Shown here: piece after piece, positions 2,948 through 34,830 of the stretch
Layout: each line of letters begins with the position of its first letter
Position numbering within the stretch: the stretch's first letter is position 1
Assembly: GCA_043824495.1 (NCBI GenBank)
Contig: JBDRSV010000024.1
Span: forward strand, 91,056 to 155,055
Reading direction: 5' to 3'
DNA from: Candidatus Aenigmatarchaeota archaeon
GTDB lineage: Archaea > Aenigmatarchaeota > Aenigmatarchaeia > QMZP01
Length of the DNA stretch: 64,000 nucleotides
The notes under the pieces: generated by a model
Seen by the model: only the letters and a program-made list of their open reading frames with translations
What the model was told of the DNA's origin: nothing
Database searches by the model: none
Made by a program: the position numbers and the translations under genes

Positions 2948-2966
2948 GTTCTCGCCGCGAATCCAA

Positions 2967-3010
2967 ACAGGTATTCAAGAAGAGTCAATTCCTTCTGCCT
3001 GTTTTTAATT
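2967..3010 (+). terminator. intrinsic terminator-like hairpin followed by T-run
   Basis: AAACAGG...CCTGTTTTTAATTT immediately after the lipoprotein stop. Confidence 0.4.
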
Positions 3011-3030
3011 TGTCTAATTAAAGGGATATA
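3008..3030 (-). repeat. junction motif copy 1 (AATTTGTCTAATTAAAGGGATATA; reverse-complement orientation)
   Basis: Matches four other copies at 17660, 20176, 36287 and 56967. Sits exactly at the GC-to-AT composition switch. Confidence 0.85.
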
Positions 3031-3110
3031 GAAAGAAAAAATTAGAAATGTTCAGACATATAAACCTTATAAACTATAATGCTCAATAATTGGTATAATT
3101 CGAAAGGAAA

Positions 3111-15171: not shown

Positions 15172-15315
15172 ACCCCCTTGACATCACCAAGGAATGAACA
15201 GGATATAAAGACCATACCGAACAAAAGTGAACAATCATGTTATATCCCTCTAATTAGACAATATAAAACAATCAGGTGCCGAGTGCACACCTAATTGTCC
15301 TTGCCAATCCTCTTC

Positions 15316-16422
15316 TCATCTCAGCTTCAAAAACGCTATATGAGGTGCAGGCAGCCACTTGACTAACGATTCAGTCCAAGAGAAAGACCATTTCAGCTTC
15401 TTCTTCATCTCGTGAACCTTCATACATTTCACCGAGACTAGATTCCAGTTCAGGATGCCGAAAGCTGTGCCCAAGAGACCACCGACAAGCATAACGAAGC
15501 CCTGTCCTACAAGATCCATTCCGGCGGAGGAAACGAGAAATTTGTAAGCGAGAAATCCGCCCAAGACTCCGTCAACTGCACACAACACTCTCTGGAAACA
15601 GTGAACCATCTTGATGATGTTCCAGATAAACTGACCGATAAATGTGAGGACCACCGAGATGCACACCAAGACAACGAAAATGACGGTCAGTGCAGTGAGA
15701 ATTGGGTACCAGACAGAAAGTAGAAGCAAACTGAAGAGAATGTATCCCATCGCGTTGAGATACCCGAGTTTTATTTCTCGGCGGTTCTTCTCCTCAAGGA
15801 AATACCTCCTTCTTAACACACCGATGTCGTATTTTTGGTCCGTGTGTCTGCTTATTCCGAGAGCCTCCCCAATACTCTTATAGTTGTACAAAACGTCTTC
15901 CCCGCTAGCGTCTTTCTTATCGACCATCATGAAAGGATAGAAGAACCTTCCGCGATCACGACTTCCAACAAAAGCGAGGAAAGAAAGAACGCCGGAAAAG
16001 ATCACAACACAGGCACCAGAGAGCGCCAACAGAAGAATGCTGCTGAGAGCGAGTTGAAGGATGTTCAGTGTTTCAGCATCTGCGAAAAGACCGGAAAATA
16101 TGTGATGTGCTGGCCACAAGCCGAGCACAAGACTCGGAAAAAGGAACGGGTGTGGCTTCGAGCATAACCAGTCCTTGGCTTTTCCGTAGTTGTCTCTGAT
16201 ATAAAACGGCCAAGTTCCGATATCATCCAACATCTCTCCGAGCATCACTTGGATCGCTTTGGCCACCTCACGGAGGTCGTAACCAAAATAACCAGCTGCT
16301 CCGCCGGCCAGGAAAGCAGCAACCCACATGTACAACTTGTCCGGCATCAGCCACATGGCAGTTGCACAGAACACGATGCCTCCAATGAAGCATCCGATTC
16401 CGATCTTCATCCAATCTTTCAT
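15316..16422 (-). CDS. polytopic membrane protein (hypothetical)
   Basis: At least 8 predicted TM helices. Intermediate GC zone (about 48%). Confidence 0.5.
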   Translation of the reverse strand: MKDWMKIGIGCFIGGIVFCATAMWLMPDKLYMWVAAFLAGGAAGYFGYDLREVAKAIQVMLGEMLDDIGTWPFYIRDNYGKAKDWLCSKPHPFLFPSLVLGLWPAHHIFSGLFADAETLNILQLALSSILLLALSGACVVIFSGVLSFLAFVGSRDRGRFFYPFMMVDKKDASGEDVLYNYKSIGEALGISRHTDQKYDIGVLRRRYFLEEKNRREIKLGYLNAMGYILFSLLLLSVWYPILTALTVIFVVLVCISVVLTFIGQFIWNIIKMVHCFQRVLCAVDGVLGGFLAYKFLVSSAGMDLVGQGFVMLVGGLLGTAFGILNWNLVSVKCMKVHEMKKKLKWSFSWTESLVKWLPAPHIAFLKLR

Positions 16423-16489
16423 GGCGAAAATCTCCTTCTCGTTGTATTTCTTTGTTTATAGTTATCGTCCTAGAATTAATTCAAAACAA

Positions 16490-17041
16490 TCATATCTGCA
16501 AAGGTTCAAGCAGATACATCAGACTTCGGTCTCGTAATTCTGTCCTCTTATAAGGAGGGAGATCTATGAGACAAAGACTGGAAATACTCACGTGCATGGT
16601 TTGATACTTGGTTTCGTCTGCTTGGTACATTCCCGTAAAGATTATATTATTCAGGACAAACCCGGAAACTACTGTCCAGATCCAGAATGCCATCCATCCA
16701 TCGTACAAGAAGACGCTGGCAATCGCTGAAATGATTGCACCCACTGCGAGAACACCTACCTCAAAGAGAAGCATCGTAAAGATATCTCCCACGGGGTCGT
16801 TTTTGTCCTCTTCCCACCAATCCTCCATGACGAGTTCGTGGATAATCATGTCAATGAGATTCTGCCTGTTCTGCATTTTCTCGTGGTAGGCTATGAAACG
16901 AGTTGGTTGACGAATGTTGTGCCAGATGATCAATCCAATTGGCACCCAGATGACTGCTGTAGTGACAAGCAGCCAGAGAACTACTCTAGTTTCCATGTCC
17001 CCTCCAGGATTGATTGTTAGAAAAAATACTAGTATAATCAC
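16490..17041 (-). CDS. membrane protein (hypothetical); probable true start at Met 16996
   Basis: METRVVLWLLVTTAVIWVPIGLIIW TM helices; same strand as 15316..16422. Confidence 0.45.
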   Translation of the reverse strand: MIILVFFLTINPGGDMETRVVLWLLVTTAVIWVPIGLIIWHNIRQPTRFIAYHEKMQNRQNLIDMIIHELVMEDWWEEDKNDPVGDIFTMLLFEVGVLAVGAIISAIASVFLYDGWMAFWIWTVVSGFVLNNIIFTGMYQADETKYQTMHVSISSLCLIDLPPYKRTELRDRSLMYLLEPLQI

Positions 17042-17249
17042 TCTCGTTAATTGACATTTCTGTCTTTCGTTGTCGTAGAGTATTGATTCCTAAATTACAG
17101 ATGATGACTTTACCTCGAACAAGAATCTTGTGCCAGGTGCTAAAAGTTGTCAGCGATGATAAATGTGGAACATGATGCATAGAATTTAACCTAAAATTTT
17201 ATAAACCTATACAAAACCTTTTTATACCTCTTAATTGACAATATATAGT

Positions 17250-17639
17250 ATGAAGAAAAAAGCAAAGAGGACCACAAAGAAAACAGTGAAAAAACCAGTC
17301 AAGAAAATAAAAATAGAAAAGAGAGTAACACCAAAACCAAAAAAAGAAGAGAAAATTAAATGTCCTTATTGTAAGAGTTCTAGAGTGGTTTGGAGAGGAT
17401 ATAGATACAACGAAAAGACTGACAAGCACTTAAGATTATGTAACAACTGTAAGAGAAAGTTCACAAAAAGAGACGAGTTCTTCCGTATGAGATTCGGTGA
17501 AGAAGAGATAAAAAGAGCTGTGGAATTATACAAGAAAGGTTATTCTTCTGCAGAAGTAGTTCAGAACCTGAAAAGAAATCATGGAATAAAGGTTTCAAGA
17601 TGGACTGTGATCTGTTGGCATAAGAGATACACTAAGTAA
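17250..17639 (+). mobile_element. IS1-family InsA-like Zn-ribbon/HTH protein, solo with no InsB
   Basis: CPYCKSSRVVWRGYRYNEKTDKHLRLCNNCKRKFT mirrors the InsA CPSC...YLCSHCRKTW pattern. C-terminal HTH GYSSAEVVQNLKRNHGIKVSRWTV. TTTATA box about 26 nt upstream of ATG 17250. The track start TTG 17235 is less likely. Confidence 0.45.
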
Positions 17640-17659
17640 TTATTTTTTTTATCAGTTAT

Positions 17660-17681
17660 TATATCCCTTTAAATGGACAAT
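17660..17681 (+). repeat. junction motif copy 2 (TATATCCCTTTAAATGGACAAT)
   Basis: Exact AT-to-GC switch. Followed by hairpin GGAGAGGTGCAG...CTGCACACTCTCC, the terminator of minus-strand gene 17755..19629. Confidence 0.85.
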
Positions 17682-17754
17682 GCAAAGGGAGAGGTGCAGT
17701 ATTCCACATCTGCACACTCTCCCACCACATCACCTTTTCAGGCTTTGCAGATTT

Positions 17755-19629
17755 TTACTTCAGAAGCGTCATCTTTTTGCTTTCCGTCAGGCTGGCCGTT
17801 TGCAACCGATAGAAGTACATACCGGACGCGACGGCCTTACCGTAGCGGTCGGTTCCGTCCCAGCTAACCTGATGTGTTCCTTCGGGCTGGGACCCGTTGA
17901 CGAGAGTGGCAACGTTGCGGCCGAGGATATCAAAGACCTCTAGCTTTACGTCTCCTCCCTGAGTCAACTGATAGGAAATCACGGTTCCGGCGTTGAAGGG
18001 GTTCGGGTAGTTCTGGTTCAAGCTGAATGATGTAGGAACGGCTCCTGTTGTCTTGTACGCGATGTTCAGCGTACCTAATGGAATCCACCCAGCCGGAACT
18101 GTCCGGCTGTTGTTGATCTCGTCAGCTATCGTTTTGGCCAACTCGTGATCGCCGAATGGATCGTCGATCAAGTTGTCGCAGTATGTTACCGCCTGTGACA
18201 CAGTCGCGCCGTCATCGCTAATCACAGCGGTTTGTGCCAGTTTGCCGCTAGCGACATTGAGTAGCAAAGCCATGAGTTGCTGTCTGGCTCGATCAATCAT
18301 GTCAACGCTGCCCTTGAGGTTCAGCAACGTCTTCGCGACTTCGAGCTTGTCTTCACAAAGATCCGACACGGGTGGATCGTACACGACGACCTCGTTCACT
18401 GCGTTCGAGTTGAAGTGGCCCGCGATGAGGTCGAGATAGCTACACAGAGTTGAAGCATCGATTTGCGCGCGGCCATTCCCACCAGTAGCGACGCCGACGT
18501 TGTGTTTCCAGAAGCCGATTGTTCGTTGTTCTCCAGCGTCTGACGGGCATCCCAATTCAAAGTCGATTTGGGCTGTGCCTTCACAATCGAGATCGACGGA
18601 CTGTTCGCTCGGAAATGCCGTATACCCGAGGGGGCCAACAAATGATACCATGTAGCTGGCCTCACCCGGGAGGTTCTCGAAATCGTAGTAACCGGCTTCA
18701 TCAGTCACAGCCGATTCTACAAGTACACCGGTGGCATCGAAGACATCAATCGTGATACCAAGAACAGAGCAGTCAGCACTCAGTGTGCCCTCAATTGCGG
18801 CGAAGCATTCTTCCTCTCCACCTCCGCATGCACACGTTCCATCTTCCACCTCAATGGCGGTGATGGTGTTGTCGTAGGCGTCCTTTGACCAGACGACGGT
18901 CAACGGCGCGAAGTTGATGACGTCGCATTCGAGATCCTCATCCCGACCACCGATCGTCGCGAAGTCACTGAGATACACGCCCGTTGTCTTGTCAATGCGA
19001 ACGATGTTGCCCAGACCATCGCGCCCGATGTAAAGGGTGTTCCCCGTCCCAACAATAACACCACTTATTCGATCCAGTGTATTGCCGGCCGCGTCGGTCG
19101 GATACAACGTTCCCAGATAGGCTCCCGAGCCCGCATCGAAGTGGTCAATGCCCGTTGATACATCATCGGAAACCCAGACACTGTTATCCGTCGCATCAAA
19201 GCCAATGCCGTCGATGAAACAGAAGCCCGGTGTTACCACAGAAAACTGGAAAGTGGCTACGCCGGTGGTGGGATCGATGAGATACACGTTCGCCGGACAT
19301 TCGTTGTCACTGCCTCCCCAGATCATGTTGCGCGTATTGTCCCATGCAATAGCGCCGATCGAAACTGGTGTGCCATCCGGTTTGAAAATGGAAACGAAGC
19401 CGAGATCGGTGCCGAATTTGTCTATCGAGTAGAGAGTTGGGTCGAAAGAGTTGGTGTAGAAAATCACACCATCACATCCAACTGCAACACCGATACCGAC
19501 ACCAGACGAGCTTGGAACAGGAACTGTGACGTTCGTGATGACATCACCGGGAGCTGCCATTGACGTAGCGGTGATAGCGGTGAAGAGGCAGAACACAACA
19601 AGCGCAGTGAAAGCTGTGAGACGCTTCAT
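17755..19629 (-). CDS. secreted protein with T9SS (Por) C-terminal sorting domain, CarboxypepD_reg-like domain and beta-propeller-like repeats
   Basis: Signal peptide MKRLTAFTALVVFCLFTAITATSMA. EAGYYDFENLPGEASYMVSFVGPLGY. C-terminal NYPNPFN...YFYRLQTASL sorting domain. GC-rich. Confidence 0.6.
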   Translation of the reverse strand: MKRLTAFTALVVFCLFTAITATSMAAPGDVITNVTVPVPSSSGVGIGVAVGCDGVIFYTNSFDPTLYSIDKFGTDLGFVSIFKPDGTPVSIGAIAWDNTRNMIWGGSDNECPANVYLIDPTTGVATFQFSVVTPGFCFIDGIGFDATDNSVWVSDDVSTGIDHFDAGSGAYLGTLYPTDAAGNTLDRISGVIVGTGNTLYIGRDGLGNIVRIDKTTGVYLSDFATIGGRDEDLECDVINFAPLTVVWSKDAYDNTITAIEVEDGTCACGGGEEECFAAIEGTLSADCSVLGITIDVFDATGVLVESAVTDEAGYYDFENLPGEASYMVSFVGPLGYTAFPSEQSVDLDCEGTAQIDFELGCPSDAGEQRTIGFWKHNVGVATGGNGRAQIDASTLCSYLDLIAGHFNSNAVNEVVVYDPPVSDLCEDKLEVAKTLLNLKGSVDMIDRARQQLMALLLNVASGKLAQTAVISDDGATVSQAVTYCDNLIDDPFGDHELAKTIADEINNSRTVPAGWIPLGTLNIAYKTTGAVPTSFSLNQNYPNPFNAGTVISYQLTQGGDVKLEVFDILGRNVATLVNGSQPEGTHQVSWDGTDRYGKAVASGMYFYRLQTASLTESKKMTLLK

Positions 19630-20175
19630 GGATTTTTATTCCTTAGGTTGTGAGGGAAATATGACCCTCCGGGTTTGTTTTTCGATTAGTTTCTGATTGT
19701 TTGTCGTTTACCACGTTTCCAAGTTAAGGTCCGCGAATCGCTATTTTCATTGGCATCCTCTCTTTGGGTTAATGTTGTCCGCACAAATTGCGGGATTAAA
19801 AGAAGGAAAGACACAAAAGATAGAGTATGTCTTATGTAGACTGAGAGTAAAATCATTCGAAGAATAAAGCTAATACTATTAAAACAAACATGCATGTTTG
19901 ATGTGTTTCTTTTCATGTTTTTTGTGTTAGCCAATGTACCGTTTCTATGGTTAATTGGATTGATTGAGTTGCAATCAATACAAATTTAAATGATGTTCGA
20001 ATGAGTAGCATGATTTAAATTGTATACAAAAATTGACGTTGATTCATCGTCGTTTTTTTGTGTTTTGGTATTTTTTTTGATTCTAGCTTGTCGCTTTTGT
20101 CAAGTCTTTAACTCAAGTATATAGCTTACAGGTATTTAAATGTTTTCTAACACATTTTTTTTAATTTTCTTTCTT

Positions 20176-20197
20176 TTATCCCTTTAAATAGACATAT
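20176..20197 (+). repeat. junction motif copy 3 (TTATCCCTTTAAATAGACATAT, slightly divergent)
   Basis: At the AT-to-GC switch that opens island C. Followed by inverted repeat AACGGGCG...CGCCCGTT. Confidence 0.75.
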
Positions 20198-20199
20198 AA

Positions 20200-23100
20200 A
20201 AAGGCAAACGGGCGAAGATTTGGAGCCAAACTCTTCTTGATGTCTCACCTCCGCCCGTTAAATGCCGTTGTCCGGCCTATCAATTTACCCGCCGGTTAGG
20301 TGAGCACATGTGCTCGTGTCCCAGAGGCGCATGTTTTCATGCCCTCCTTTGCCGGGTTCTTACGCGAACGTGCTGCTTGACCGAGATAATGTAGCTGCCA
20401 GATTCCCCACAACCTTGTTATTGGTGGAACCGCGACAGCGGTCGGTCCAGTCCGTATGCATCGTAGCCTCACTTGGTGAAGGACTGCGAATCAAGAGACG
20501 GGGATTCAGAAGAATCCCCGTCTCACGAGTTGACGGTTGGTACGAGATATATCAAAGGAAGTCTTTATGCCATTGGGTGCATTCCGAAACCTTTAGCCTC
20601 GTCCGTCTCCGAGGGATCCTATCAAAGGTTTCATAAAGGAAATTTCATGGACCTCGTTACGATAGGATCGGAGTGGCGTAAAGCCACGGCCAGAACCTCG
20701 AGGTCCCCCAGGATAAGATCACCGTTTGAATATGAGTCAGCGGTGAACGTAAGGGTGCTGGCGATTCTTCTTCGCATTCAAACCCTCCAGGGAACACTTC
20801 GTAATTTGTGTTGTCAGCGGCTGTTTACGAATCGGCGGTGATCGTTTCCACCACGGTACATGTCGGCGTGGTGACAAACGATGAAGAAGCGACTTCAAAA
20901 CGCGCGCGGCCATTGCTCGGCGGCGGCGAATGAGCCCAGGCATTGACGGCGGTCGCGGCGGTATTCATCCAGGAAGCGACCACTGGTGACCCGCGAAGGG
21001 TCGGTAATCGGTTCATAGAGCAAGCTCCATTTCTTCCGATAGGAAAATTCCAATCCACTTTACAAACTCTCGCCTAAACAGAAAGTATTGTCACATAACT
21101 TTCCGTCGCAAAAGAGAATGTGAAGAGGAAACAATTTCGTACACCTCGTCAAGAGATCGTCTCCATTTTCACCCTACATGGGCTAGGCGAGAGGATAGAC
21201 CAGTTGCTGATAGAGATGTAGAGGGAACCGTTTTCATCCGAAGATCTCTCCCGTCCCTCAGGGAGTAAGTTGCTCGTCCACCAGGTTCCCATACCAAGGG
21301 AGCTGGCAACTCTGCCATTCTCTCTATCCGACTCTCTGTTGTCATCGCCACTACGGCAACAACTCTTAGCCTATCCGGCGTAGGATTATGAGAGTGTAGA
21401 GCGAATTCCTCGTTCCATGTTTGTTCTGTATCGCTGCCTGTTATGATATCCAATCCTGAAAACGGGATTGGGTCAGCGGTATAAACAATACAGGAACCAT
21501 ATATGAGGTAGCAGAGTGTCATGATTCCCAGCATGACAACTCCTTACAAGGGCACATGGTTATATGGTAAATGCTCTCTCCGTCAACAAATCGTGCCCTC
21601 TAAGACATGTTTAGGAGAGAAAGGCGACAACTCATGAAGTGTTCTTCAGGTGGACCCGTCATCACTGTTATTGCGTTGACGGCCTTCTCCTTGACCCGGA
21701 CTTAGACGTGTGGCTTTCGGTGTTTTCGCGGCGCGTTTCTGCTGTTTTGGACTACGCTTCTTGTTGCTCGGAAGCCCGTCTCGGGCACCACCGTGACACG
21801 TCATGAAAGACCTCGTTTGTGAGGAGTTCAGTTCAAGCTTGTGCTGGAACTGTTTGGAACGAGGAATTGTTACTCTTTACGGCGAGCGATTGTGTGTCAT
21901 CGTAACTCCTTGACAATGGTTTCCACAAGCTCCAAAATAAAAAAGAGCTGTTGTTTTCAAATTCAGTTGGGAATCTCCTAGCCCGCCCCCAGAACTGACT
22001 AGAGGAGATCCCCAACTTTTGTACAGCGCACCCCGTGCATTGTTTTCAGGGTGGAGGGGCCCGGCGGTCAACTGAGCCCCTCACTGGACGAATCGGTCAC
22101 AGATAACATGTTACGCATTACCGACTCGAAATCTATGCCACGGCAGTAGATGGAAGTGGTCGCATCTACCGCCGGGCTTCACGACGTTGTGCATTTTGTC
22201 GCCTTCAGCCTTACACAACGCCGTTATTTCCCCACCCACAGGGAATTTAATATCGCGGGGCCTCACTCAGGAGACCCCGCTTCCGTTGGGTTTACTACCG
22301 AATTGTTCGGTAGCGTTCTTCCACGACAGACATACGCACATGCGCACGTCTTCATTTCTTTGAGGACCTACTCATCTCCGATTTGAGTAGGTCCTCGGCT
22401 CCCCACAACCCCCCGATCAGCACCGGGAATTTTTTTGAGGGGAAATCTGAGCAGATATCTCAGACTCCCCTCCCGTCAGGTCTACCGACCAGCACTTCCG
22501 GTTGGACGCCGGAAATTCTTTATTAGAAGGGGTTTCCCCTCTCCAAGAAACCCCTTCCTCTTCGGCGTAGCGCGTCTCACGCGCTTTAGTGCATCGATCC
22601 CCACCGATCAGGTAAAACCCTTGGATGGTTCTCTCCCCGAACCCCCACTGAAATATTTTGGAACCCCTCATAGATCCCCGTAATCTCCGAGAGGTTCCGA
22701 CAGCAGCACCATACAAATGGGACTACCGTGACAATCAAAAATACCGGAATCCACCGCGTCAGAAGAGGATTCCGGTATTCTACATCGCTGGTTGTGTTGA
22801 GAGCTTACCCCTTACTGGTCTTAACGAGTATGTTACGTCGGACTTCCTTTCACCAAATATACGGGTCACTACAGAATACCCGATCGATCCGCTTTGTTGT
22901 CTTAATCTCACCAGCGGATAGTGACGCGGTTACAGCCAGCGATTTCGCCTTTATACAACAGGCGTCTCCAAACCAAAATGGAAATTGGAGTTGTTGCTTC
23001 CACACTTCCGGATTTCCCCCTCCGGTAAACTCTAAGGTACTGATAGGTGACCGCTCGTGTTTCTTGTGTTCGCAATTGCCGATTGCATCAAGCTCTTCGT

Positions 23101-23800
23101 AGATCTAGATCTGGAAGTAATTAGCAAACGATCACAATAAACAGACAACTGGGAGAAGTCCATTTCTACCAGTACCTGGATTTTCTAACCCTCGGGAGGT
23201 GTGTACAAGCCTAAGCAGAGTTTGTCCTGTTGAATTGGCCCCGAGGGTAAGTGGCCTTCCGGAAGAGAATTGGTGAGGTCCTGTAACAGAACTCTATCTC
23301 ATTCCGGGGTAAAGCTCAAGGCACAGCCAGAAGGAGACGTATTACCTTGAGAAGTTGGTCTCCCGAGTGAAGAAATTCGAGATGTCCCATCGATGAAGGA
23401 CATCTCTTCTCCACTCGGGCTCATTCGTCAGCCTGGAAGGAGAAGTGCAAGAGTTTTCGCGCAATTACTCTCTCTCCTCCCGGGAAATTTATGACCTCCT
23501 GGTCCGAAACTTGTGCCGCGGTAAACCAGAAGGCGTAACTGCTAGGCTATGTGACGGCCACAGCAGTAGGGATCGAATCCAATACACGAAAGACAGCTAA
23601 GACTAACTCTGTCTCGTGTGGTTTACGAGTAAAATTCAGAAATCGATAGTCTTCGGCCTCTTCGAGGGAAACTGCTTAAGCGCTTAATTGCAGCGCGTTA
23701 TGTTTCCTGGTAAGTGACCTGTTCTCTAGGATGTACCGAAGGCTAACTTAGTTAGTCTCGGGAAATTCGCGTGTGATTGGTAGAAATGAAACATGAAATG
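20200..23800. other. GC-rich ORF-poor island C, dense in perfect hairpins; candidate structured ncRNA(s) or degraded foreign DNA
   Basis: No ORF over 125 aa in 3.6 kb, versus dense coding elsewhere. Many perfect 6-13 bp inverted repeats, e.g. 22363..22397, 22525..22556, 22741..22778, 23366..23430. Confidence 0.5.
21169..21534 (-). CDS. small hypothetical protein with N-terminal hydrophobic segment
   Basis: Perfect SD AAGGAG plus 5 nt before the ATG (rc of 21535-21546). MLGIMTLCYLIYGSCIVYTA is signal/TM-like. Confidence 0.4.
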   Translation of the reverse strand: MLGIMTLCYLIYGSCIVYTADPIPFSGLDIITGSDTEQTWNEEFALHSHNPTPDRLRVVAVVAMTTESRIERMAELPAPLVWEPGGRATYSLRDGRDLRMKTVPSTSLSATGLSSRLAHVG

Positions 23801-27342: not shown

Positions 27343-27354
27343 TTGACAATAAAC
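27343..27354 (+). promoter_or_regulatory. TTGACAATAAAC sigma70-like -35 element upstream of 27378 (copy 1 of the island D promoter cassette)
   Basis: Same TGACAAT(A/T)AAC as at 29368 and 30278. SD GGGAGGG before ATG 27378. Confidence 0.4.
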
Positions 27355-27377
27355 GGAAACTTCTGGGAGGGATTGTC

Positions 27378-27740
27378 ATGAGAAATATCATGAGCTGTGT
27401 TTTCCTGCTGCTCACATTATTCCTGGTGAGTTGTGCGAAAAGTGGTCCGGAGCTGGGGAGTGATATCCGGATCAGTGGAACAATCGTCGACATGAGCGAA
27501 GGAGGTAGTAGGGATTTCCTGATCCAGTCCGGAGGAAAACTCTACCATTTCGGTACTCGACTGCAATTTAAATGGAGTAAACTTCGTGCGGGACATTACG
27601 TCACCGTGGATGGGAAGTTTGGGGGACCGTGCGAGGAAGCCTCAATGTTCAGACGCTACATGTACGACGACGAAGGGAACTTCATCAAGTCCCTCGAGGT
27701 CTATGACATCATCCATGTTTCGAACGTGGAGAGGCAGTGA
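27378..27740 (+). CDS. lipoprotein (hypothetical)
   Basis: MRNIMSCVFLLLTLFLVSC has lipobox LVSC. GC-rich, with SD. Confidence 0.5.
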   Translation: MRNIMSCVFLLLTLFLVSCAKSGPELGSDIRISGTIVDMSEGGSRDFLIQSGGKLYHFGTRLQFKWSKLRAGHYVTVDGKFGGPCEEASMFRRYMYDDEGNFIKSLEVYDIIHVSNVERQ

Positions 27741-27869
27741 TCCCACTGAGTTCATCCAATTCATCGGGTGGACCCAGATGAGATTATTGTCTAAAGGCTA
27801 AATCAGCAGGCCTTGAATTGTTGGTAGGGATCATTGGAAGATTCCCAAAAACATGGCAAGGAGGGCAAC

Positions 27870-28022
27870 ATGTCGCAGGGAACCAAAAACACCAAAGACA
27901 CAGGAACAAGAGCGTTTCTGGTTATCGACGGAACTACAGGAGACCTCATTCCTGTGAAAGCATCGTCTGGACGAAAAGCTGAGCAAATCGCCGGCAGCGT
28001 AACCAGACAATCCCGCAAATAA
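27870..28022 (+). CDS. small hypothetical protein (50 aa)
   Basis: AAGGAGGG SD 7 nt before ATG 27870. Hairpin GAGTATC...GATACTC after the stop. Confidence 0.3.
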   Translation: MSQGTKNTKDTGTRAFLVIDGTTGDLIPVKASSGRKAEQIAGSVTRQSRK

Positions 28023-28159
28023 AATTACCCACTGTGAATTCCCCAGGAGTATCATCCGCCCGGAAGATACTCTGTTCTCCCCCATACTACCATAGGCCAC
28101 ACGGAGCTCATCAGGTTTTCACTTGGTGGGCTCCAGTGAGATCTTTGGTGGTTAACGTT

Positions 28160-28240
28160 CCATAACCGTTTCATTCACAACCTTTTGCCGACCTTGTCTG
28201 CATTGCAGCTCAAGGAAGTGTGTAAAGGAAGGAGAGTGTC
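28160..28240 (+). promoter_or_regulatory. conserved leader/promoter region copy A (CCATAACC...CCTTTTGCCGACCTTGTCTG...AAAGGAAGGAGA-ATG)
   Basis: About 75% identical to 32682..32757 upstream of gene 32758. Preceded by GAGCTCAT...GGTGGGCTC, similar to 31980-32030 and 32613-32665. Confidence 0.5.
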
Positions 28241-28942
28241 ATGTTATTGCATGTAACAGTAATAAGCCGCGGAGACAGAACAACGATCGATGTTCCCAGA
28301 ACAGAATTCAACTGGGATACCAATCAATGTCGCGTAGTTGAAGGTGCAGAGGAAGCTGAAAGAAATCTCGGGGTGGCGGAGAATCTCGAAATCCGTAAAC
28401 CCGCGGCTTACCAGGGACCCTATTTATACTGTATTGTAGAGGTGGGGTTCGAGGAAATTTGTTTTCCCCCGACTTTCCTCAAGTGGATCGAGAATGTTCC
28501 CGAGGATGAGAAAAGAGCCATCCTTATCGTTCCCACCAAAACCATCCGAAAGGCCGATGATAGTCACTATATGGGATCTATAGATCGTTATAGGTATTAT
28601 CCTCATGGTGAAGTCTTCCTGATTGGTCGCAGAATCATCGTGAGGAACATCTACCTATCACCTGATAACATCAAGATGGTGGTGGATAAAATCCTTGCCC
28701 GACTGAGTGACGGCCTGTTCCTCCGGTTGGCCTTTGAGTTTCTCCAGGCTACGCCGATCAGTGACAATCCTACGGTGACTGGAGAACATATCACCATGTT
28801 GGATAATCTCTTCACGGGGACGCGTTCCCTTCGGAGAGGAGATTCAACTCGTCGCGAACGGTTCAATCATGTTCGGGCCGTGATTGGACATATGGCCAAA
28901 CACGGGATAGTTCTGTCTGGCAAGATCGAACCCGTGAAGTAA
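28241..28942 (+). CDS. hypothetical protein
   Basis: 233 aa, GC-rich, strong SD AAGGAAGGAGAG. No family recognised. Confidence 0.5.
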   Translation: MLLHVTVISRGDRTTIDVPRTEFNWDTNQCRVVEGAEEAERNLGVAENLEIRKPAAYQGPYLYCIVEVGFEEICFPPTFLKWIENVPEDEKRAILIVPTKTIRKADDSHYMGSIDRYRYYPHGEVFLIGRRIIVRNIYLSPDNIKMVVDKILARLSDGLFLRLAFEFLQATPISDNPTVTGEHITMLDNLFTGTRSLRRGDSTRRERFNHVRAVIGHMAKHGIVLSGKIEPVK

Positions 28943-28995
28943 TCAACGGCTTGGAAACCAAGTCAAATCAACGACAATGAAAGTTGAGGTGTAAT

Positions 28996-29316
28996 ATGAA
29001 TAGGCGAATACAGAGTATGATTGTGATGACTGCGACTTTGATAGCTGTTGCAGTCTTTCTCCAAGTCTCACAGCTTCACGCGGCACATTTGATGGCAACC
29101 GCAATTGCAATTGCGGTTGTGGTGATGATCGTTGTTAACATGGGAAGAGTTCCCAACACTCGGCAGAAGTTTCGGAACTTCTCTGTCGGAGCCGTTTTCG
29201 GGAGCATCTTCCTGTGGGAGTTGTTCAAGGTTACGTTCTTGAATCACCCTGCGGCTCTTTGGAGTGTGGTTGTACTCGGAGCTGCGGCAGTCTCATTTCT
29301 GACGTTCCGCCGGTAG
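28996..29316 (+). CDS. small membrane protein
   Basis: Three hydrophobic helices. ATG 28996 preferred over the track start 28984. Confidence 0.4.
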   Translation: MNRRIQSMIVMTATLIAVAVFLQVSQLHAAHLMATAIAIAVVVMIVVNMGRVPNTRQKFRNFSVGAVFGSIFLWELFKVTFLNHPAALWSVVVLGAAAVSFLTFRR

Positions 29317-29330
29317 TACTGAAGTTCACC

Positions 29331-29380
29331 GGGGATCCCGATCAATCTGGTTGGGATCCCCTCAACCTGACAATAAACTG
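29331..29380 (+). terminator. hairpin GGGGATCC-N15-GGATCCCC followed by TTGACAAT -35 box (cassette copy 2)
   Basis: Perfect 8-bp stem right after stop 29316. The TGACAATAAAC repeat also occurs at 27343 and 30278. Confidence 0.5.
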
Positions 29381-29414
29381 TTGTTAAATGTTCCATTACA
29401 CCAAGGAGGGCGCA

Positions 29415-30233
29415 ATGCGTCACCAACGTTTCATCACCACAGTACTGGCACTCATGTTCTTGACTGTGCCGGCAATGTTCAGCAGTGCGGTTCTGGCCGA
29501 TCCGATTTCATCCGGAGACGGTCAAATGTATGTGGTCCAACAGGGAGATTGGTTGACGCGGCCGATCATCCCGACACTCTACTCGGATGTGTTGAAGCCA
29601 GGCGACTTGAAGAGTGCTCTCTGGATCGCTGACATCTTCGATACACTCAACATTAACATCACCCACCGCGACAAAATTCGGGCGTATGATACCATCATGG
29701 CGCCGTCATTCGCGGCGTTGAAGAAGTACAAACATCTCGCACCCGCCGACGTGGTCATCAACCTGTTCGCCACGTATGATATCGCGTCCATGGAACTTGT
29801 GGACGCCGAGTTTGTAAGAAAGCGCATCGAGGACTTTGAGGGTACTTACTGGTACAAAAATCGAGCCGCGTGGGCCCGAATTTTCGGAGTCGGTAATGGC
29901 ACGTATGTCTGCGGTGACACCGTGATGCCGTTCTCATGGTTCATGAGCTGCAATACGGACGGTAATACGGGAATGACTATCTCCATCTCCATGGACGAAG
30001 GAGATCTCACCGCAGTTCGCAAGGTTCCAGGTACACGTAACGGATTCTGGGGAGCCAGTCGTGACAATAAGTTCACATACGTGGGCTTCGGCAACGACTG
30101 GATCGATCGTTGCGACTGGAATGACGAGACCGAGAGCTGGGACATTCCACCAGTTCTGAATGAGATCGTCGGAACTCTCAACAACTTTCCATTCGTCCAG
30201 TATATGACCGTCGTCGCGTACGAACTGGAATAG
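29415..30233 (+). CDS. secreted hypothetical protein (paralog family with 30334..31659)
   Basis: Signal peptide TTVLALMFLTVPAMFSSAVLA. AGGAGGG SD. C-terminal FPFVQYMTVVAYELE resembles the paralog's FFTNMKVIMYTVK. Confidence 0.5.
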   Translation: MRHQRFITTVLALMFLTVPAMFSSAVLADPISSGDGQMYVVQQGDWLTRPIIPTLYSDVLKPGDLKSALWIADIFDTLNINITHRDKIRAYDTIMAPSFAALKKYKHLAPADVVINLFATYDIASMELVDAEFVRKRIEDFEGTYWYKNRAAWARIFGVGNGTYVCGDTVMPFSWFMSCNTDGNTGMTISISMDEGDLTAVRKVPGTRNGFWGASRDNKFTYVGFGNDWIDRCDWNDETESWDIPPVLNEIVGTLNNFPFVQYMTVVAYELE

Positions 30234-30241
30234 TTGTTACA

Positions 30242-30290
30242 GGGGATCCTGACCAATTCGGTTGGGATCCCTTCAACTTGACAATTAACG
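30242..30290 (+). terminator. hairpin GGGGATCC-N15-GGATCCC followed by TTGACAAT (cassette copy 3)
   Basis: About 80% identical to 29331..29380. Confidence 0.5.
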
Positions 30291-30333
30291 TAACATGTTA
30301 ACAATGAATACCAACAGAGAAGGAGAAAGTCAA

Positions 30334-31659
30334 ATGTGTAACATCATCATCCGTACCATCGTGGCACTGGCACTCATGGTTCTGATCGTGCCGGCCATCA
30401 CCAACATCGCAATTGCGGACGGAACGCCGTGTGGTCTCACCGTAGGTAATGGCAACGACATCGATCGCGACTTCGTTGCATTCCTCAACAAAGAAGGAAT
30501 CAGATGGTTAACAATCGAGGAATTCGTTGAGTGCTACTCCCAACTGATCGGTCCAGGTAGTACCATGTTGAGCACCACTCGGGGATATGGCTGGGGATAT
30601 ATTGACGTTCCTTTCAAGTTTGGCGATTCGGTCGCGTCTATAGTGAACATGGAGATCATGCCAGGCGTCCGGATCAATATGGCTTGGGATCAAGCGGTCA
30701 TCTTCTACAAATATGCGAATAATCATGGAATGCATATTCTGAAGAAGACGGAGAATGACCGTGAGGTTCCGGCCTGGAGCGGCTTGATTGATGAAGCTAC
30801 GGTGCGTCAACATGTCAACGGCTTCGAAGTGTCCGCGCAGATTCCGAGTGATGTTCTGGAATCGGATGTTGCGATTATCCGGATGCGAGATTTAAAGGAC
30901 GCCTACTTGGCCGAGAACACCGACGTTATCGAGTCTTACCTCATCGAGAAGTTTGACCTCGACGACGATTCCGAGCCGTATTCTGACAATCGGCCAAATA
31001 TATTTCATCGCAGTGGCGAAGTCTTACTGGACTCGGAGATGTTCTTCGTGTATGAAGGTCTGGAAATTCTCAATCTCATCATCAATGATCGGTGGATTGG
31101 TGTACGATTCCCCGGATCGACCTATATCCACTTCATCAACATCGGACCGAGAAAAGTCCACGACTTGAATGCCAACTTCGTCGAGACGAAAACTCCGAAC
31201 AACACCGGCGGTCAGATCAGTATCCCGCAGGATGTGATCGAAAAGATGACGTGGATCGATTCCGTCTATTCGGATAGGATGTCCCCGAATCCGATGTTAG
31301 GTTTCGGAAACGGTGAGTACCTGGCGAGCTCTGGGATCGTTTCGTTCGCGTGGGTTGCCTGGACCAACACCGATGGCAACCTCCAGTTCTATCTCAATGT
31401 TCTCCTTAACATTGATCATCAGGTGACGATCGAGACTGTGTCTCACTACGGTGGGCCTGATGTTTGGAGGGCGTGGAGTCCGAATCAGACCTGCACAGAG
31501 GTGGAGACTGGAAACGGCTGGTGTTATATTCACTGTTCCCAGTCGGAAAGTGGACCTCGAATCTGCGACTATAGACAAGCCTTGGACGATGCAGTCGCGG
31601 CGTTCAATGGCATCGATTTCTTCACGAACATGAAGGTGATCATGTACACGGTGAAGTAA
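30334..31659 (+). CDS. secreted hypothetical protein (paralog of 29415..30233)
   Basis: Signal peptide IVALALMVLIVPAITNIAIA. SD GAAGGAG. ATG 30334 preferred. Confidence 0.5.
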   Translation: MCNIIIRTIVALALMVLIVPAITNIAIADGTPCGLTVGNGNDIDRDFVAFLNKEGIRWLTIEEFVECYSQLIGPGSTMLSTTRGYGWGYIDVPFKFGDSVASIVNMEIMPGVRINMAWDQAVIFYKYANNHGMHILKKTENDREVPAWSGLIDEATVRQHVNGFEVSAQIPSDVLESDVAIIRMRDLKDAYLAENTDVIESYLIEKFDLDDDSEPYSDNRPNIFHRSGEVLLDSEMFFVYEGLEILNLIINDRWIGVRFPGSTYIHFINIGPRKVHDLNANFVETKTPNNTGGQISIPQDVIEKMTWIDSVYSDRMSPNPMLGFGNGEYLASSGIVSFAWVAWTNTDGNLQFYLNVLLNIDHQVTIETVSHYGGPDVWRAWSPNQTCTEVETGNGWCYIHCSQSESGPRICDYRQALDDAVAAFNGIDFFTNMKVIMYTVK

Positions 31660-31948
31660 AGCCGAACGCCACGAATTACTAATCCGCTCTTCTTCCCAAA
31701 GAAGTGTGGCTAGTGTGAAAGGAGTATGGGAAGGTTCCACAGTAGTAGCATCAACGGCAAAAAGTAAAAGACAAAAAAATGAAGGCCAAACCCGAGGAGG
31801 AACTCGAAGTGAAGACGAAACGAAGGTCATGCCAATATCCCATTTCGCCCATGATGGCGACTCATATTCTCATAGTCTGACCGGCCGCCGGCGACGCCAC
31901 GGGCCTCTTATATAGTTAGCGGGGCCCATCGCCAATGCAGTCAAAATC

Positions 31949-32030
31949 CCGGGTAGGCTTCAACCCCTACCCGGGGTTCCAAATGAGCTCATCTAGTTCA
32001 GATATTTTCTAGGTGGGCCCATTTGGAATT
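31949..32030 (+). promoter_or_regulatory. hairpin CCGGGTAGG...CCTACCCGG plus inverted repeat TTCCAAATGAGC-N28-GCCCATTTGGAA
   Basis: A second copy with the same architecture lies at 32580..32665. Confidence 0.45.
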
Positions 32031-32092
32031 GTAAATGATTGTTGACTGTTCAATGAGCGTTCCGAAAGGAACATTGCAAGGAGATTTTTATC

Positions 32093-32557
32093 ATGACACA
32101 GCAGATGACATCAGTACCAGATGGTTGGGGCGGAGCAGGTGGCGACAGTCTCGGCACAGATGCACTCGAGCTTCTGAAGAAAATGGGATTCGACAATGCA
32201 ATGGGACAAGCGTTGCTCGGCAGCTTTAATCCACAGGGTTTCGTGGATGCGCTTCTCACGTTCCGACCGTTCCCGGTTGGCGGAGTCTCTCCCGAAGCTC
32301 GGAACGAGAGCAGAGAAGCTCAGTGGATTTATCTCACATGGATCTTCACCAGTCGGCAGAGAGCCTCCTTTCCCGTCGAAGGGGTGAGTGGCCTTGCTGA
32401 CTTCGTGGATATTGTCCGGAAAGCACAGAGCGATGCGGACGCGAACGAACATGCAGTTCGAATCTTGTCCAGGTTTGGGTGTGTCGATCTCCTCGTTGGT
32501 GAAGGTCGGACCTTCTTGCACACGAAAGCCATCGATTTCGCTAATTCCCAAACGTAA
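32093..32557 (+). CDS. hypothetical protein
   Basis: 154 aa, SD AAGGAG, GC-rich. Confidence 0.45.
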   Translation: MTQQMTSVPDGWGGAGGDSLGTDALELLKKMGFDNAMGQALLGSFNPQGFVDALLTFRPFPVGGVSPEARNESREAQWIYLTWIFTSRQRASFPVEGVSGLADFVDIVRKAQSDADANEHAVRILSRFGCVDLLVGEGRTFLHTKAIDFANSQT

Positions 32558-32579
32558 GTCCGCGACATCACCAACCAAT

Positions 32580-32665
32580 CCCGGGAACAAGACAGTTCAA
32601 TCTGTTCCCGGGTTCCAAATGAGTTCATGTGGTTTGATTTCTTGACTAGGTGGGCTCATTTGGAA
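32580..32665 (+). promoter_or_regulatory. hairpin CCCGGGAACA...TGTTCCCGGG plus inverted repeat TTCCAAATGAGT-N29-GCTCATTTGGAA (copy 2)
   Basis: Immediately after stop 32557. Contains TTGACT. Similar to 31949..32030. Confidence 0.45.
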
Positions 32666-32681
32666 TTGAGTTGTAGTAGAA

Positions 32682-32757
32682 CCATAACCCATTCACGACC
32701 TTTTGTCGACCCTGTCTGATATCAGTTCAGGGAAGAATCTAAAGGAAGGAGAATTCA
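32682..32757 (+). promoter_or_regulatory. conserved leader/promoter region copy B
   Basis: CCATAACCCATTCACGACCTTTTGTCGACCCTGTCTG...AAAGGAAGGAGAATTCA-ATG matches 28160..28240. Confidence 0.5.
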
Positions 32758-34749: not shown

Positions 34750-34830
34750 GCGTGTAGTTATCATTCACACCCCGCCTGGATTCAATTCCAGGCGGGGTTG
34801 ATCATGAAATAAAGAGAAGGGGAGTGTACC

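Follow-up and report, generated by a model that had tools for sequence, protein, structure and literature searches.

A 27-bp sequence, here called motif-1, marks the edges of blocks of bacterial-type DNA in the window, a 64,000-nucleotide stretch from the genome of Candidatus Aenigmatarchaeota archaeon. All six strong copies of motif-1 in the window lie on a GC junction, with the GACAAT end towards an island of ~50% GC, and none lies at an ordinary gene. We tentatively read motif-1 as a site that captures foreign cassettes in one specific orientation and probably also starts antisense transcription; this is our preferred explanation, to which we give slightly less than an even chance.

DPANN archaea carry many bacterial-type genes, and such DNA makes up about one third of the 64-kb window, in six blocks. 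The window presents a concrete, repeatable structure in which foreign blocks are docked in one fixed orientation on a 27-bp site, and this site is genetically linked to a DNA-binding protein of transposase descent. If confirmed, this would be a second platform for cross-domain gene capture in Archaea, beside integrons, possibly with built-in antisense control. The question of capture becomes testable, since the 27-mer is defined, a protein of 95 aa is available, and both the transcription starts and the points of insertion are predicted.

Motif-1 and the island junctions

Junctions were called by two-state GC segmentation of the window and fall at 2959/2960, 15272/3, 17686/7, 20202/3, 36280/1 and 56993/4. 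A search for TATATCCCTTTAAATGGACAAT with up to three mismatches returned five matches in the window (3009-3030(-), 15241-15262(+), 17660-17681(+), 36287-36308(-) and 56967-56988(+)) versus none in 100 dinucleotide-preserving shuffles, and a position-weight-matrix scan of the window added two further copies, 20174-20200(+) and 17220-17246(+). Six copies are strong, versus none expected by chance. These copies and the islands they border are:

3005..3031, minus strand: motif-1 copy (37 bits) on a GC junction, at the right edge of island 1, before the S17 ribosomal-protein gene cluster
15240..15266, plus strand: motif-1 copy (39 bits) on a GC junction, at the left edge of island A
17659..17685, plus strand: motif-1 copy named in the earlier note, at the left edge of island B, 20 nt past the stop codon of the ZnR-HTH gene (see below)
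20174..20200, plus strand: degenerate motif-1 copy (24 bits; best shuffle score 16), at the left edge of island B'
36283..36309, minus strand: motif-1 copy (40 bits) on a GC junction, at the right edge of island C
56966..56992, plus strand: motif-1 copy (40 bits) on a GC junction, at the left edge of island D
1..3004, plus strand: island 1, with genes for an M20 peptidase (cut through by the window edge), a Zixibacteria-like M32 peptidase and a lipoprotein
15267..17008, minus strand: island A, two genes converging on motif-1; hairpin at 15268-15298; start ~25 nt 5' of the first start codon
17686..19673, minus strand: island B, a single complete T9SS C-terminal sorting domain gene (17755-19629) with a ~45-nt leader and a terminator
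17687..17723: GC-rich hairpin directly after motif-1 (-24.6 kcal/mol, z = -6.0)
about 20201..23775: island B', 3.5 kb, 50% GC, strongly structured, no ORF
27354..36282, plus strand: island C, a 9-kb plus-strand gene block that begins 25 nt 5' of the ATG at 27378; hairpin at 36251-36279
56993..59064, minus strand: island D, three genes converging on motif-1; hairpin at 56992-57032; start ~35 nt 5' of the first start codon (59030)

Motif-1 is a conserved block of ~27 bp, with conservation seen in neither flank; the module measures about 21-27 bp, with the core TATATCCCTYTAAWTRGACA(AT), and the junction copies differ from one another by one to three bases. It contains neither dyad symmetry nor a T5 run, T-runs and hairpins sitting in the non-conserved flanks, and the longest match to an inverted partner within +/-200 nt was 0-8 nt, inside the range of the shuffle controls. 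The 27-bp sequence did not occur in the literature searched. A laboratory linker or adapter was ruled out, as the copies vary and recur in other datasets.

At the strong copies, an A-tract comes directly after motif-1, then a terminator hairpin that is not conserved, then foreign DNA with the form of a transcription unit. The hairpins at the cassette 3' ends stand in fixed register at every junction while their sequence is not conserved, and the preceding A-tract varies in length; we take the hairpin at 17687..17723 to be the terminator for the T9SS-tail gene, which converges on motif-1. At their other ends the islands begin ~25-75 nt upstream of the first start codon, and truncated genes are absent. 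The earlier note had described a uniform orientation at four coding junctions. The orientation is borne out by genes that converge on motif-1 in five of five coding islands (ORFs; Pfam: M32 peptidase, +; T9SS-tail protein, -), and the junctions number five coding and one non-coding. With related loci included, the first gene converges at 11-12 of the 13 strong copies that have coding DNA downstream and is co-directional at one or two, a count that rests on these 13 informative copies, all from metagenome assemblies.

The islands show lipoprotein signal sequences and Shine-Dalgarno sequences, and one island protein has a T9SS sorting tail. The M32 peptidase shares 72-84% identity with Zixibacteria-type proteins, and its DNA is 83% identical to a bacterial contig. 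Among the seven island proteins present in the collection searched (three others were absent from it), none has a relative at ≥90% identity outside this genome, and a recent donor was set aside for these seven, which have no close relative there. Island 1, which reaches ~0.9 kb past the left edge of the window and has its terminator hairpin at 2965-3004, is a composite whose pieces differ in GC content and origin.

Island B' has no credible ORF, and Pfam on three minus-strand frames and Rfam gave no match; recoded or decayed genes were dropped as an interpretation, since no long ORF appears under any stop-codon reassignment and Pfam found nothing. ORF-less stretches of different genomes share no translated or nucleotide similarity, and there are no tRNA or known RNA genes at the junctions in the window. 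The low-GC DNA of the window is syntenic with relatives. That the low-GC segments are the inserts, bounded by inverted repeats, was ruled out, as they carry ribosomal proteins, RpoD and ArgRS. A second motif was found at several places in the window:

59094..59120: motif-2, a palindromic hairpin of ACGAAAGAC type, close to the island D 5' end
17061-17070(-), 19804-19813(+), 23586-23595(+), 26630-26639(+) and 26671-26680(+): further copies of motif-2

All four exact 10-mers of motif-2 lie in the 5'-end zones of islands; with ≤1 mismatch there are 15 matches versus 4.9 ± 2.2 expected, and a copy also occurs in a related locus (L013:4047). It was not adopted as the second half of a recombination site, lying 30-720 nt from the GC boundary with flanks that are not motif-like.

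Motif-1 recurs in other Aenigmatarchaeota, and its anatomy is repeated in independent assemblies and environments (loci L006, a Black Sea MAG, L009, L012, L013, L014 and L029). Viral contigs are without the motif, and a virus or plasmid origin was ruled out on this ground. Downstream GC content exceeds upstream GC content in 21 of 22 tabulated copies and equals it in one (L029). On a longer contig of the same genome (L030), the 3005..3031 copy lies between Rpp29 and S17; the cargo in this gap differs between the window's genome and its relative L029, with the motif at opposite ends. The DNA 3' of the ZnR-HTH gene and motif also differs among the window, L015 and L018, and L014 has, compared with L013, an additional 600-bp cassette precisely at the motif edge. 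Among the cargo of L013, from a genome of 51% GC, are tRNA genes that contain introns and match the archaeon's own type, and the motif may there simply be a common intergenic element.

The ZnR-HTH gene and promoter geometry

Upstream of island B, a small gene is flanked by motif-1 sequences:

17220..17246, plus strand: motif-1 promoter variant TTTTATACCTCTTAATTGACAATATAT (16 bits, inside the shuffle range), 3 nt before the ZnR-HTH ATG
17250..17639, plus strand: Zn-ribbon plus HTH (ZnR-HTH) gene, 129 aa, ending in a T8 run, without a DDE domain

Judged by its sequence, the ZnR-HTH protein is a stand-alone DNA-binding module of an IS6-type transposase. It matches positions 2-58 of the IS6 transposase model NF033587, under the curated cut-off. 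A profile search gave 131 matches at E≤1e-10, and PF13610 (DDE_Tnp_IS240) is present in seven of the ten longer matches scanned with Pfam, at the C-terminal side in relatives of 266-315 aa, while the stand-alone proteins (95-129 aa) consist of Zn-ribbon and HTH only. The AlphaFold model has a pLDDT of 75, and PDB contains no significant match by sequence or fold. A frameshifted full-length transposase was ruled out in L013, where the ORF that follows the ZnR-HTH gene is without DDE similarity.

The gene lies beside ArgRS in three lineages (window, L013 and L015). Motif-1 copies stand on both sides of it in the window, L015-17, L018-19 and L020-22; the copy past the stop codon keeps its position in L013, L015, L018 and L020, and L001 has a copy in the divergent upstream region of the gene. 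The promoter-variant motif ends 2-4 nt upstream of the ATG in the window, L015 and L020, and in L015 the motif occupies the whole 32-nt gap between the ArgRS stop codon and the ZnR-HTH ATG. A TATA box at about -30 to -23 from the ATG reads TTTATATA in L015 and L020 and TTTTATAC in the window, and a TATA box that begins near -30 is frequent ahead of start codons in this genome. Because the variant appears to constitute the whole leaderless core promoter of the ZnR-HTH gene, forward promoter activity of motif-1 is plausible, as the earlier note had proposed for the TATATCCC-to-GACAAT direction; the geometry of the variant supports the proposal, but the TATA assignment is ambiguous.

The core of the motif had also been equated with the archaeal TATA consensus. 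TATA-like boxes are indeed present, but TTTAAATA occurs verbatim in only two of the six strong copies (56966 and 20174), the rest having TTTAAATG, TTTAATTA (twice) and TCTAATTA, and two candidate boxes compete for the assignment. ZnR-HTH promoter copies appear to use the 5' box, their inner box being degenerate. In the -30 to -23 register the junction copies have TTATATCC (6/8 matches), weaker than the ZnR-HTH copies; their inner TTTAAWTA box (6-8/8 matches) is closer to consensus, and a start directed by it would fall ~10 nt inside the hairpin. There is no conserved BRE upstream of motif-1, where the sequence is non-conserved and usually contains a T-run.

A complete antisense unit had been proposed for island B, delimited by the motif and by a hairpin plus T-run on the plus strand at ~19643-19682:

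stem-loop 19652-19669, with tail CGGGTTTGTTTTT to ~19682, plus strand: hairpin and T-run of the earlier note, with a 5-bp stem, in the T9SS 5' leader region

The structure exists, but its 5-bp stem is weak and T5 runs come earlier, at +67 and +89 after the motif; others follow motif-1 at +28 in island D and +112 in island 1. With T5 signals within 28-112 nt in three islands, a complete unit ending at 19652-19682 is not supported, and any antisense RNA from motif-1 may be short because of these oligo-T stops. Upstream, a T5-T8 run lies 5-25 nt from nearly all motif-1 copies (forward strand), and motif-1 has opposing T- and A-runs on its two sides.

Proposed cassette capture and competing explanations

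Under orientation-specific capture, the promoter variant would be the ZnR-HTH gene's own leaderless core promoter and probably its operator too, and the other motif-1 copies would be docking points for foreign DNA. Promoterless cassettes resembling transcription units, here Zixibacteria-type bacterial genes, would be inserted directly against the GACA side; each would begin a few tens of nucleotides 5' of its first start codon and close with a terminator hairpin and U-tract of its own, always with the 3' end towards the motif. We infer an enzyme and a mechanism for this insertion; neither the window nor the neighbourhood of the motif in any locus encodes a recombinase, a reverse transcriptase or a DDE partner. 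The newest cassettes would join at the motif-side edge, and islands can therefore be stacks of separate acquisitions. The upstream oligo-T run would usually insulate docking copies from host transcription and, given this insulation and the promoter geometry that they keep, these copies most likely start antisense transcripts into the cassette. Such transcripts would often extend over only tens of nucleotides, covering the terminator and the gene 3' end. Antisense transcription would act with the predicted binding by ZnR-HTH to hold down the expression of genes captured recently; as the island genes are intact, such silencing is putative.

The motif might instead be a recombination or attachment site only, with a trans-acting recombinase inserting at the GACA edge and no promoter role at the junctions. 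The recombinase could be an integrase, or a full-length IS6-type transposase for which the motif serves as a one-ended site, much as IS26 takes up translocatable units by targeted conservative insertion. The exact junction position, cargo that varies between relatives and motif-adjacent cassette addition all agree with this explanation, as do the homology of the linked protein to the IS6 DNA-binding domain and the direct-orientation motif copies that separate cassettes at 15240-23775 and in L013. We nevertheless consider it unlikely. Solitary islands have one motif copy, without a second (hybrid) site at the far end; 8-bp target-site duplications are absent, no direct repeat above chance having been found around three solitary modules; DDE or integrase genes were not found nearby; the motif is without the GG tip and cTGTt/caaa signature of IS6 terminal repeats (PMC7986276); and the preserved promoter geometry is left unexplained. 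An IS-type insertion was ruled out, as target-site duplications are absent and the motif is not an IS6 terminal repeat.

Somewhat less probable again is that the motif is an ordinary strong host promoter or operator and that the orientation rule arises from selection alone. Foreign DNA would then land at random, and the survivors would be those lying tail-first against a promoter, antisense-silenced and not over-expressed. Selection would fit the promoter geometry, the lack of an archaeal promoter of their own in the foreign genes, and L001, where the motif lies 45 nt ahead of a co-directional native lipoprotein gene. It leaves unexplained why the hairpin abuts the motif's A-tract without a spacer in more than 12 independent cases, why six of six strong copies in the window are at junctions and none at ordinary genes, and why 5' ends are trimmed to ~25-75 nt with partial genes absent.

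We give a similarly low probability to RNA-templated gene capture in Aenigmatarchaeota, in which transcripts would be copied to DNA, installed beside the motif and then transcribed antisense. The templates would be foreign and cellular transcripts (bacterial mRNAs, pre-tRNAs, structured RNAs), copied from the 3' terminator/U-tract end, and the copies would be placed at a nick next to the motif, which the IS6-derived ZnR-HTH protein would recognise. Such capture would account for cargo that runs from transcript start to terminator, for the fixed tail-first orientation and for the variable length of the junction A-tract. The motif promoter would read each acquisition antisense, providing a built-in quarantine, with loose parallels in the leader-proximal acquisition of CRISPR and in piRNA clusters; bacterial genes that prove useful could later be domesticated out of it.

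The earlier note had offered simple bidirectional terminators as its own alternative, which a motif without dyad symmetry or a T5 run of its own does not support. In a refined form, a T-run, the motif and an A-run would make up one unit to which the ZnR-HTH protein binds; as a transcriptional insulator or roadblock, this unit would block read-through both ways between host genes and foreign cassettes. The flanking sequences favour such a role: the T5-T8 run precedes nearly all copies, the downstream A-tract is on the other strand a T-tract directly after the cassette hairpin, and the motif often lies between convergent genes (17659, L006). We regard an insulator as a little more doubtful than either selection or RNA-templated capture, as the motif itself has no oligo-T run or dyad symmetry, archaeal termination would need oligo-T runs alone, and the junction position, the hot-spot behaviour and the ZnR-HTH promoter copy would be unexplained.

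An assembly or binning artefact, joining bacterial and archaeal reads at a shared short repeat so that the islands are not in the archaeal chromosome, is very improbable: all sequences are metagenomic, island composition and gene content are bacterial and one Logan contig breaks at about 17094, but the window junctions were recovered by a second assembler, their motif copies differ mutually, any repeat common to the far island ends is too short to have misled an assembler with k≥31, the arrangement recurs in unrelated samples and lineages, and the artefact would require a bacterium in which the archaeal motif follows many terminators.

Comparison with known systems

As a candidate capture site, motif-1 appears to fit none of integron, IS6 element or terminator. 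Some retroelements, group IIC introns among them, insert at terminator hairpins, and LINE-type elements capture transcripts by target priming. The insertions described here likewise abut intrinsic-terminator hairpins, with cargo that runs approximately from transcript start to terminator and an orientation fixed by the 3' end. No reverse transcriptase or intron RNA was found at junction sites (Rfam; window and retrieved motif-adjacent loci); the sole group II intron seen, in L001, lies 2.4 kb from the ZnR-HTH gene and has no obvious connection with it.

In the archaeal core promoter, the centre of a TATA octamer (about TTTAWATA) lies ~26 nt before the transcription start, and a purine-rich BRE immediately precedes the octamer. 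Motif-1 shares with leaderless archaeal promoters an A/T-rich octamer at -30 to -23 in the ZnR-HTH copies, and the junction copies have two TATA-like boxes. It differs in its ~20 contiguous conserved bases from TATA to start site, far above what a core promoter needs, in having no conserved BRE and in that the junction copies face gene 3' ends.

InsA of IS1 corresponds to the N-terminal part of the transposase and binds the end of the IS, which overlaps the promoter of insA itself. The ZnR-HTH protein is comparable as a stand-alone Zn-finger plus HTH transposase fragment with a presumed binding site within its own promoter. Unlike insA, its gene is a conserved chromosomal resident next to ArgRS, outside any IS, and its site has multiplied as solitary copies at foreign-DNA junctions.

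IS6 terminal inverted repeats measure 14-20 bp and carry cTGTt/caaa motifs as well as a GG tip (Varani et al. 2021, PMC7986276), and IS26 arrays can be without 8-bp direct target repeats (PMC7986276). The ZnR-HTH protein is homologous to the N-terminal Zn-ribbon/HTH part of IS6-type transposases and, as in IS26 arrays, passengers are separated by a directly repeated single site, with insertion beside an existing copy. Here, however, the protein has 95-129 aa and no DDE domain, the site is 27 bp as opposed to an IS of ~800 bp, and the motif copies that flank the ZnR-HTH gene are direct rather than inverted repeats. Motif-1 is also without the GG tip or cTGTt/caaa, whereas a full-length relative (L026/L027) has GGACACTGTTAAG-type ends.

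Integron attC sites are imperfect inverted repeats (R''/L''...L'/R') and fold in the single-stranded state. Since motif-1 has no inverted partner, there is no attC-type folded site here, and attC at the junctions was ruled out; no integrase (IntI) domain was found in the scanned window ORFs or in the Pfam lists of L015, L018, L029 and L030. Integrons are attI/attC/IntI platforms, and archaeal integrons are described in Ghaly et al. 2022 (PMC9668308). They share with the system proposed here the capture of promoterless, compact cassettes beside a conserved chromosomal site, the newest lying nearest the site, as well as arrays of co-oriented cassettes and cross-domain capture from bacteria to archaea. 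The cassette ends differ, being here GC-rich, terminator-like stems of 30-45 nt that have no RYYYAAC/GTTRRRY cores. In integrons, Pc transcribes the cassettes in sense, whereas those of the window lie tail-first to a promoter-like site, in modules dispersed round the chromosome, even within a ribosomal-protein gene cluster.

Island boundaries and the junction motif

The window background (~34% GC) is archaeal chromosome and encodes S17, L14, L24, S4e, RpoD and ArgRS. Two-state GC segmentation separates six stretches of ~50% GC from it:

1-2959, island 1
15273-17008, island A
17687-19673, island B
20203-23775, island B' (non-coding)
27354-36280, island C
56994-59064, island D

Motif-1, an element of ~27 bp that includes CCCTYTAAWTRGACA and ends in GACA(AT), occurs in the window in five copies with ≤3 mismatches (0 in 100 shuffles). 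A weight-matrix scan adds two more:

20174-20200, degenerate sixth copy
17220-17246, weak seventh copy

Conservation spans only the ~27 bp, and the flanks of the copies are unrelated. Each of the six strong copies coincides exactly with a GC junction, its GACAAT end turned towards the island, which confirms the position and orientation described in the earlier note; the direction of island genes towards motif-1, also claimed there, holds in 5 of 5 coding islands. An independent Logan assembly has a contig break at ~17094, where low-GC DNA separates island A from the gene for a Zn-ribbon/HTH protein (ZnR-HTH), a hint that this array contains a repeat or is heterogeneous in the population.

Exact-pattern scans recovered motif-1 from further DPANN/Aenigmatarchaeota MAGs and from metagenome contigs of various environments, and the junction anatomy of the window recurs at loci L006, L009, L012, L013 and L014. 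The Black Sea MAG (L006) has, after its FEN1 gene, a single 0.65-kb higher-GC gene placed tail-first (3' end facing the motif) against motif-1. Over all loci, a converging gene is faced by 11-12 of the 13 strong copies that have coding DNA downstream; GC content is higher downstream than upstream in 21 of 22 tabulated copies and equal in one. A second assembler also recovers the window junctions, on Logan contigs of 48 kb and 22 kb, and this, together with recurrence in other MAGs and environments, makes an assembly chimera very unlikely.

At the junctions, GACA(AT) is followed by an A-rich stretch of variable length (3-12 nt), then directly by a GC-rich hairpin of different sequence at each junction and, 15-60 nt beyond the hairpin, by the stop codon of an opposite-strand gene. 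On the gene strand, the junction has the predicted form of a bacterial intrinsic terminator (hairpin + U-tract) fused to motif-1. The far (5') island ends lie only ~25-75 nt upstream of the first start codon, with no truncated genes present there; in extent, each island or layer is therefore a promoterless transcription unit.

Near the far island ends another short motif recurs, ACGAAAGACA, in many cases within a small palindrome or hairpin:

17061-17070, minus strand
19804-19813, plus strand
23586-23595, plus strand
26630-26639, plus strand
26671-26680, plus strand
59094-59120
L013:4047-4060

Its four exact 10-mers in 64 kb all fall in zones near island 5' ends, at variable distances (30 to 720 nt) from the GC boundary. 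Sense transcription of the cassettes may use it as an operator or leader element.

Origin and turnover of the cassettes

The island DNA is bacterial-type. The M32 carboxypeptidase of island 1 shares 72-84% identity with Zixibacteria-type bacterial proteins, and its gene shows 83% DNA identity to a bacterial metagenome contig and 73% identity to a contig with clear bacterial chromosomal context. A T9SS sorting tail is present on a protein encoded in island B, and Shine-Dalgarno sequences and lipoprotein signal peptides are found on island genes. Homology between island 1 and the bacterial contigs is confined to the M32 gene, the neighbours of which differ, also in their GC content; island 1 is therefore a stack of separately acquired pieces. 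For 0 of 7 island proteins did the protein collection contain a relative at 90% identity outside this genome. Island C contains a 51-nt repeat (84% identity; 29328-29378 and 30239-30289) in sense orientation, 5-10 nt before the start codons at 29388 and 30295. The repeat terminates in GGGATCCCYTCAACYTGACAATWAAC, a loose likeness to motif-1, and TTGACAATAAAC lies at 27344-27354, ahead of the first island C gene; the likeness could be fortuitous, or the sequence a bacterial intergenic repeat or a GC-rich motif-1 relative.

Cargo differs between relatives at shared sites. L015, a close relative with conserved synteny, has ArgRS, the ZnR-HTH gene and motif-1 directly in a row, and 2.3 kb of unrelated DNA separates motif-1 from HerA; in the window, an additional 4.3 kb precedes the ZnR-HTH gene, and islands B and B' make up 6.3 kb downstream of it. 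The genes for RNase P p29 (Rpp29) and S17 are normally contiguous within archaeal ribosomal-protein gene clusters. In the window's genome they are separated by ~5 kb (a methyltransferase gene, M20, M32 and a lipoprotein gene) with motif-1 at the S17 side, while the gap in a related contig (L029) holds 2.1 kb of different genes with motif-1 at the Rpp29 side, in the opposite orientation and again preceding a hairpin and converging genes. Motif-1 plus tail-first cargo is therefore a module and not an upstream element of S17 itself. Loci L013 and L014 have the left flank, motif-1 and the downstream gene in common, and L014 carries a further unit of 600 bp right at the motif-1 edge, composed of a hairpin, a gene for a small secreted protein and a 60-nt leader, with ~60 nt of the older unit lost and no second motif-1. 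Islands therefore grow from that edge.

Two sets of observations complicate this picture of a capture site. The cargo of L013 (51% GC) includes archaeal tRNA genes with introns, and at L013:3150-6280 motif-1 forms the final block of a ~130-300-bp repeat unit, which also carries AGAGTTTGTGAAYATGATG and has its own TTTAAATA (TATA) box 15-42 nt upstream of motif-1; these units separate a tandem cassette array in which the intron-containing tRNA genes lie on the opposite strand. Secondly, island B' and its counterparts following the ZnR-HTH gene and motif-1 in three relatives (L015:10326-12616, L018:10338-12830, L020:1700-4081) span 2.3-3.5 kb each, lack ORFs whichever stop codon is reassigned, give no signal in Rfam or Pfam and share no similarity; in the window, B' follows the next motif-1 copy, at 20174. 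Local folding of these highly structured stretches far exceeds that of coding controls (mean z -1.1 to -2.1 vs. -0.1 to -0.8) and in 3 of 4 cases is stronger on the strand converging on motif-1, and they may be large structured RNAs or captured RNA-derived DNA.

Other genes were noticed in host DNA. A tRNA-binding-domain protein gene (PF01588; 3858-4211, plus strand) lies between L14 and L24 in the ribosomal-protein gene cluster; it has equivalents in L029 and L030 (a longer contig of the window's own genome) and, being kept in a relative, is a lineage feature and not an island. The myo-inositol-1-phosphate synthase gene (47035-49560, minus strand) is split by an intein with a LAGLIDADG homing-endonuclease domain, while the length of the L015 ortholog (360 aa) suggests that it is intein-free. 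Low-GC DNA at 39330-42056 (minus strand) encodes a 908-aa type IIG (Eco57I/MmeI-like) restriction-modification fusion enzyme; its presence is noteworthy, given that the genome accumulates foreign DNA all the same. A low-GC DDE_Tnp_1 (IS4/IS5-type) transposase gene (44028-45038, plus strand) is unrelated to motif-1, with no copy of the motif near it.

The ZnR-HTH protein and predicted transcription from motif-1

The small low-GC gene at 17250-17639 (plus strand) encodes ZnR-HTH, homologues of which (46-77% identity; 95-129 aa) adjoin motif-1 in every lineage examined. The gene is a stable chromosomal resident and lies near ArgRS in the window, L013 and L015. A weaker motif-1 variant precedes its ATG by 2-4 nt in the window, L015 and L020 and by 11 nt in L018, and a strong copy in the same orientation lies past its stop codon and an oligo-T run in the window, L013, L015, L018 and L020; in L001, motif-1 instead occupies part of the divergent upstream region. 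Similarity of the protein to the IS6 transposase model is confined to the first ~57 model positions. A profile search of 1.8 billion proteins returned 1169 relatives, and in seven longer ones that were checked (266-315 aa) an IS6-family DDE domain stands behind the ZnR-HTH module. ZnR-HTH thus corresponds to the DNA-binding module of an IS6-type transposase and lacks the catalytic portion. Its structure model comprises a beta-ribbon and four helices, with no significant PDB match.

The earlier note had called the motif core an archaeal TATA box, from which transcripts would enter each island antisense. Literal TTTAAATA is present in only two window copies; the promoter and its orientation gain partial support from the variant before ZnR-HTH and from the uniform convergence of island genes. 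In L015 and L020 that variant reads TTTATATACC..., placing a TATA box at -30 to -23 from the ATG, and the window variant (TTTTATACC) has the same register; in L015 the variant takes up all 32 nt between the ArgRS stop codon and the ATG. Octamers that resemble a TATA box and begin near -30 are frequent before start codons in the window's genome, so leaderless transcripts are the norm here. In L001, motif-1 lies 45 nt before a co-directional lipoprotein gene. By homology with the ZnR-HTH promoter copies, junction copies should fire in the TATATCCC-to-GACA direction. Junction copies have the weaker 5' A/T box (TTATATCC), and ZnR-HTH copies the weaker inner box (TTTAAWTA); the 5' box as TATA would place the start in the A-tract, and the inner box ~10 nt inside the hairpin.

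A hairpin and T-run near 19652-19682, proposed to end a complete antisense unit across island B, is present on the plus strand but weak. Downstream of motif-1, T5 runs already occur at 67 and 89 nt (island B), 28 nt (island D) and 112 nt (island 1), and the distant signal therefore delimits no such unit. As for the other suggestion, bidirectional terminators, motif-1 itself has neither dyad symmetry nor an oligo-T run and is therefore not a terminator, although it typically has a T-run upstream and the A-tract and hairpin of the cassette downstream.

A candidate capture architecture and known systems

We propose that motif-1 serves a domesticated DNA-binding protein of IS6 type as binding site and promoter module, and that foreign cassettes resembling transcription units would be installed beside it, 3' end first; antisense transcripts into the cassettes, often short, probably start there. 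No recombinase, transposase or reverse transcriptase was found near motif-1 in the window and the loci examined. In L001, a group II intron RNA domain (Rfam RF02012, 63 bits; L001:4288-4449, plus strand) lies 2.4 kb from the ZnR-HTH gene and is the sole retroelement trace near any motif-1 locus examined. Cargo that runs from transcript start to terminator, with an A-tract of variable length, makes RNA-templated capture attractive, if speculative. A viral origin was rejected, since motif-1 does not occur in viral contigs.

Members of the IS6 family encode a DDE transposase, are bounded by 14-20-bp inverted repeats that have a GG tip and cTGTt/caaa motifs, and are flanked by 8-bp target repeats (PMC7986276). 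Motif-1 loci have none of these, and the likeness to IS6 is limited to homology of the DNA-binding domain. Archaeal integrons, some of them in Aenigmatarchaeota, combine IntI with canonical folded attC sites (PMC9668308). In contrast, the integrase is absent from every locus examined, motif-1 has no inverted partner and the cassettes are arranged tail-first to a promoter-like site, which together speak against an integron. Motif-1 was not found in the searchable literature. The significance of these loci lies in a previously undescribed architecture in Aenigmatarchaeota, one that joins a motif, a protein and cassette capture and is distinct from both integrons and IS6 elements.
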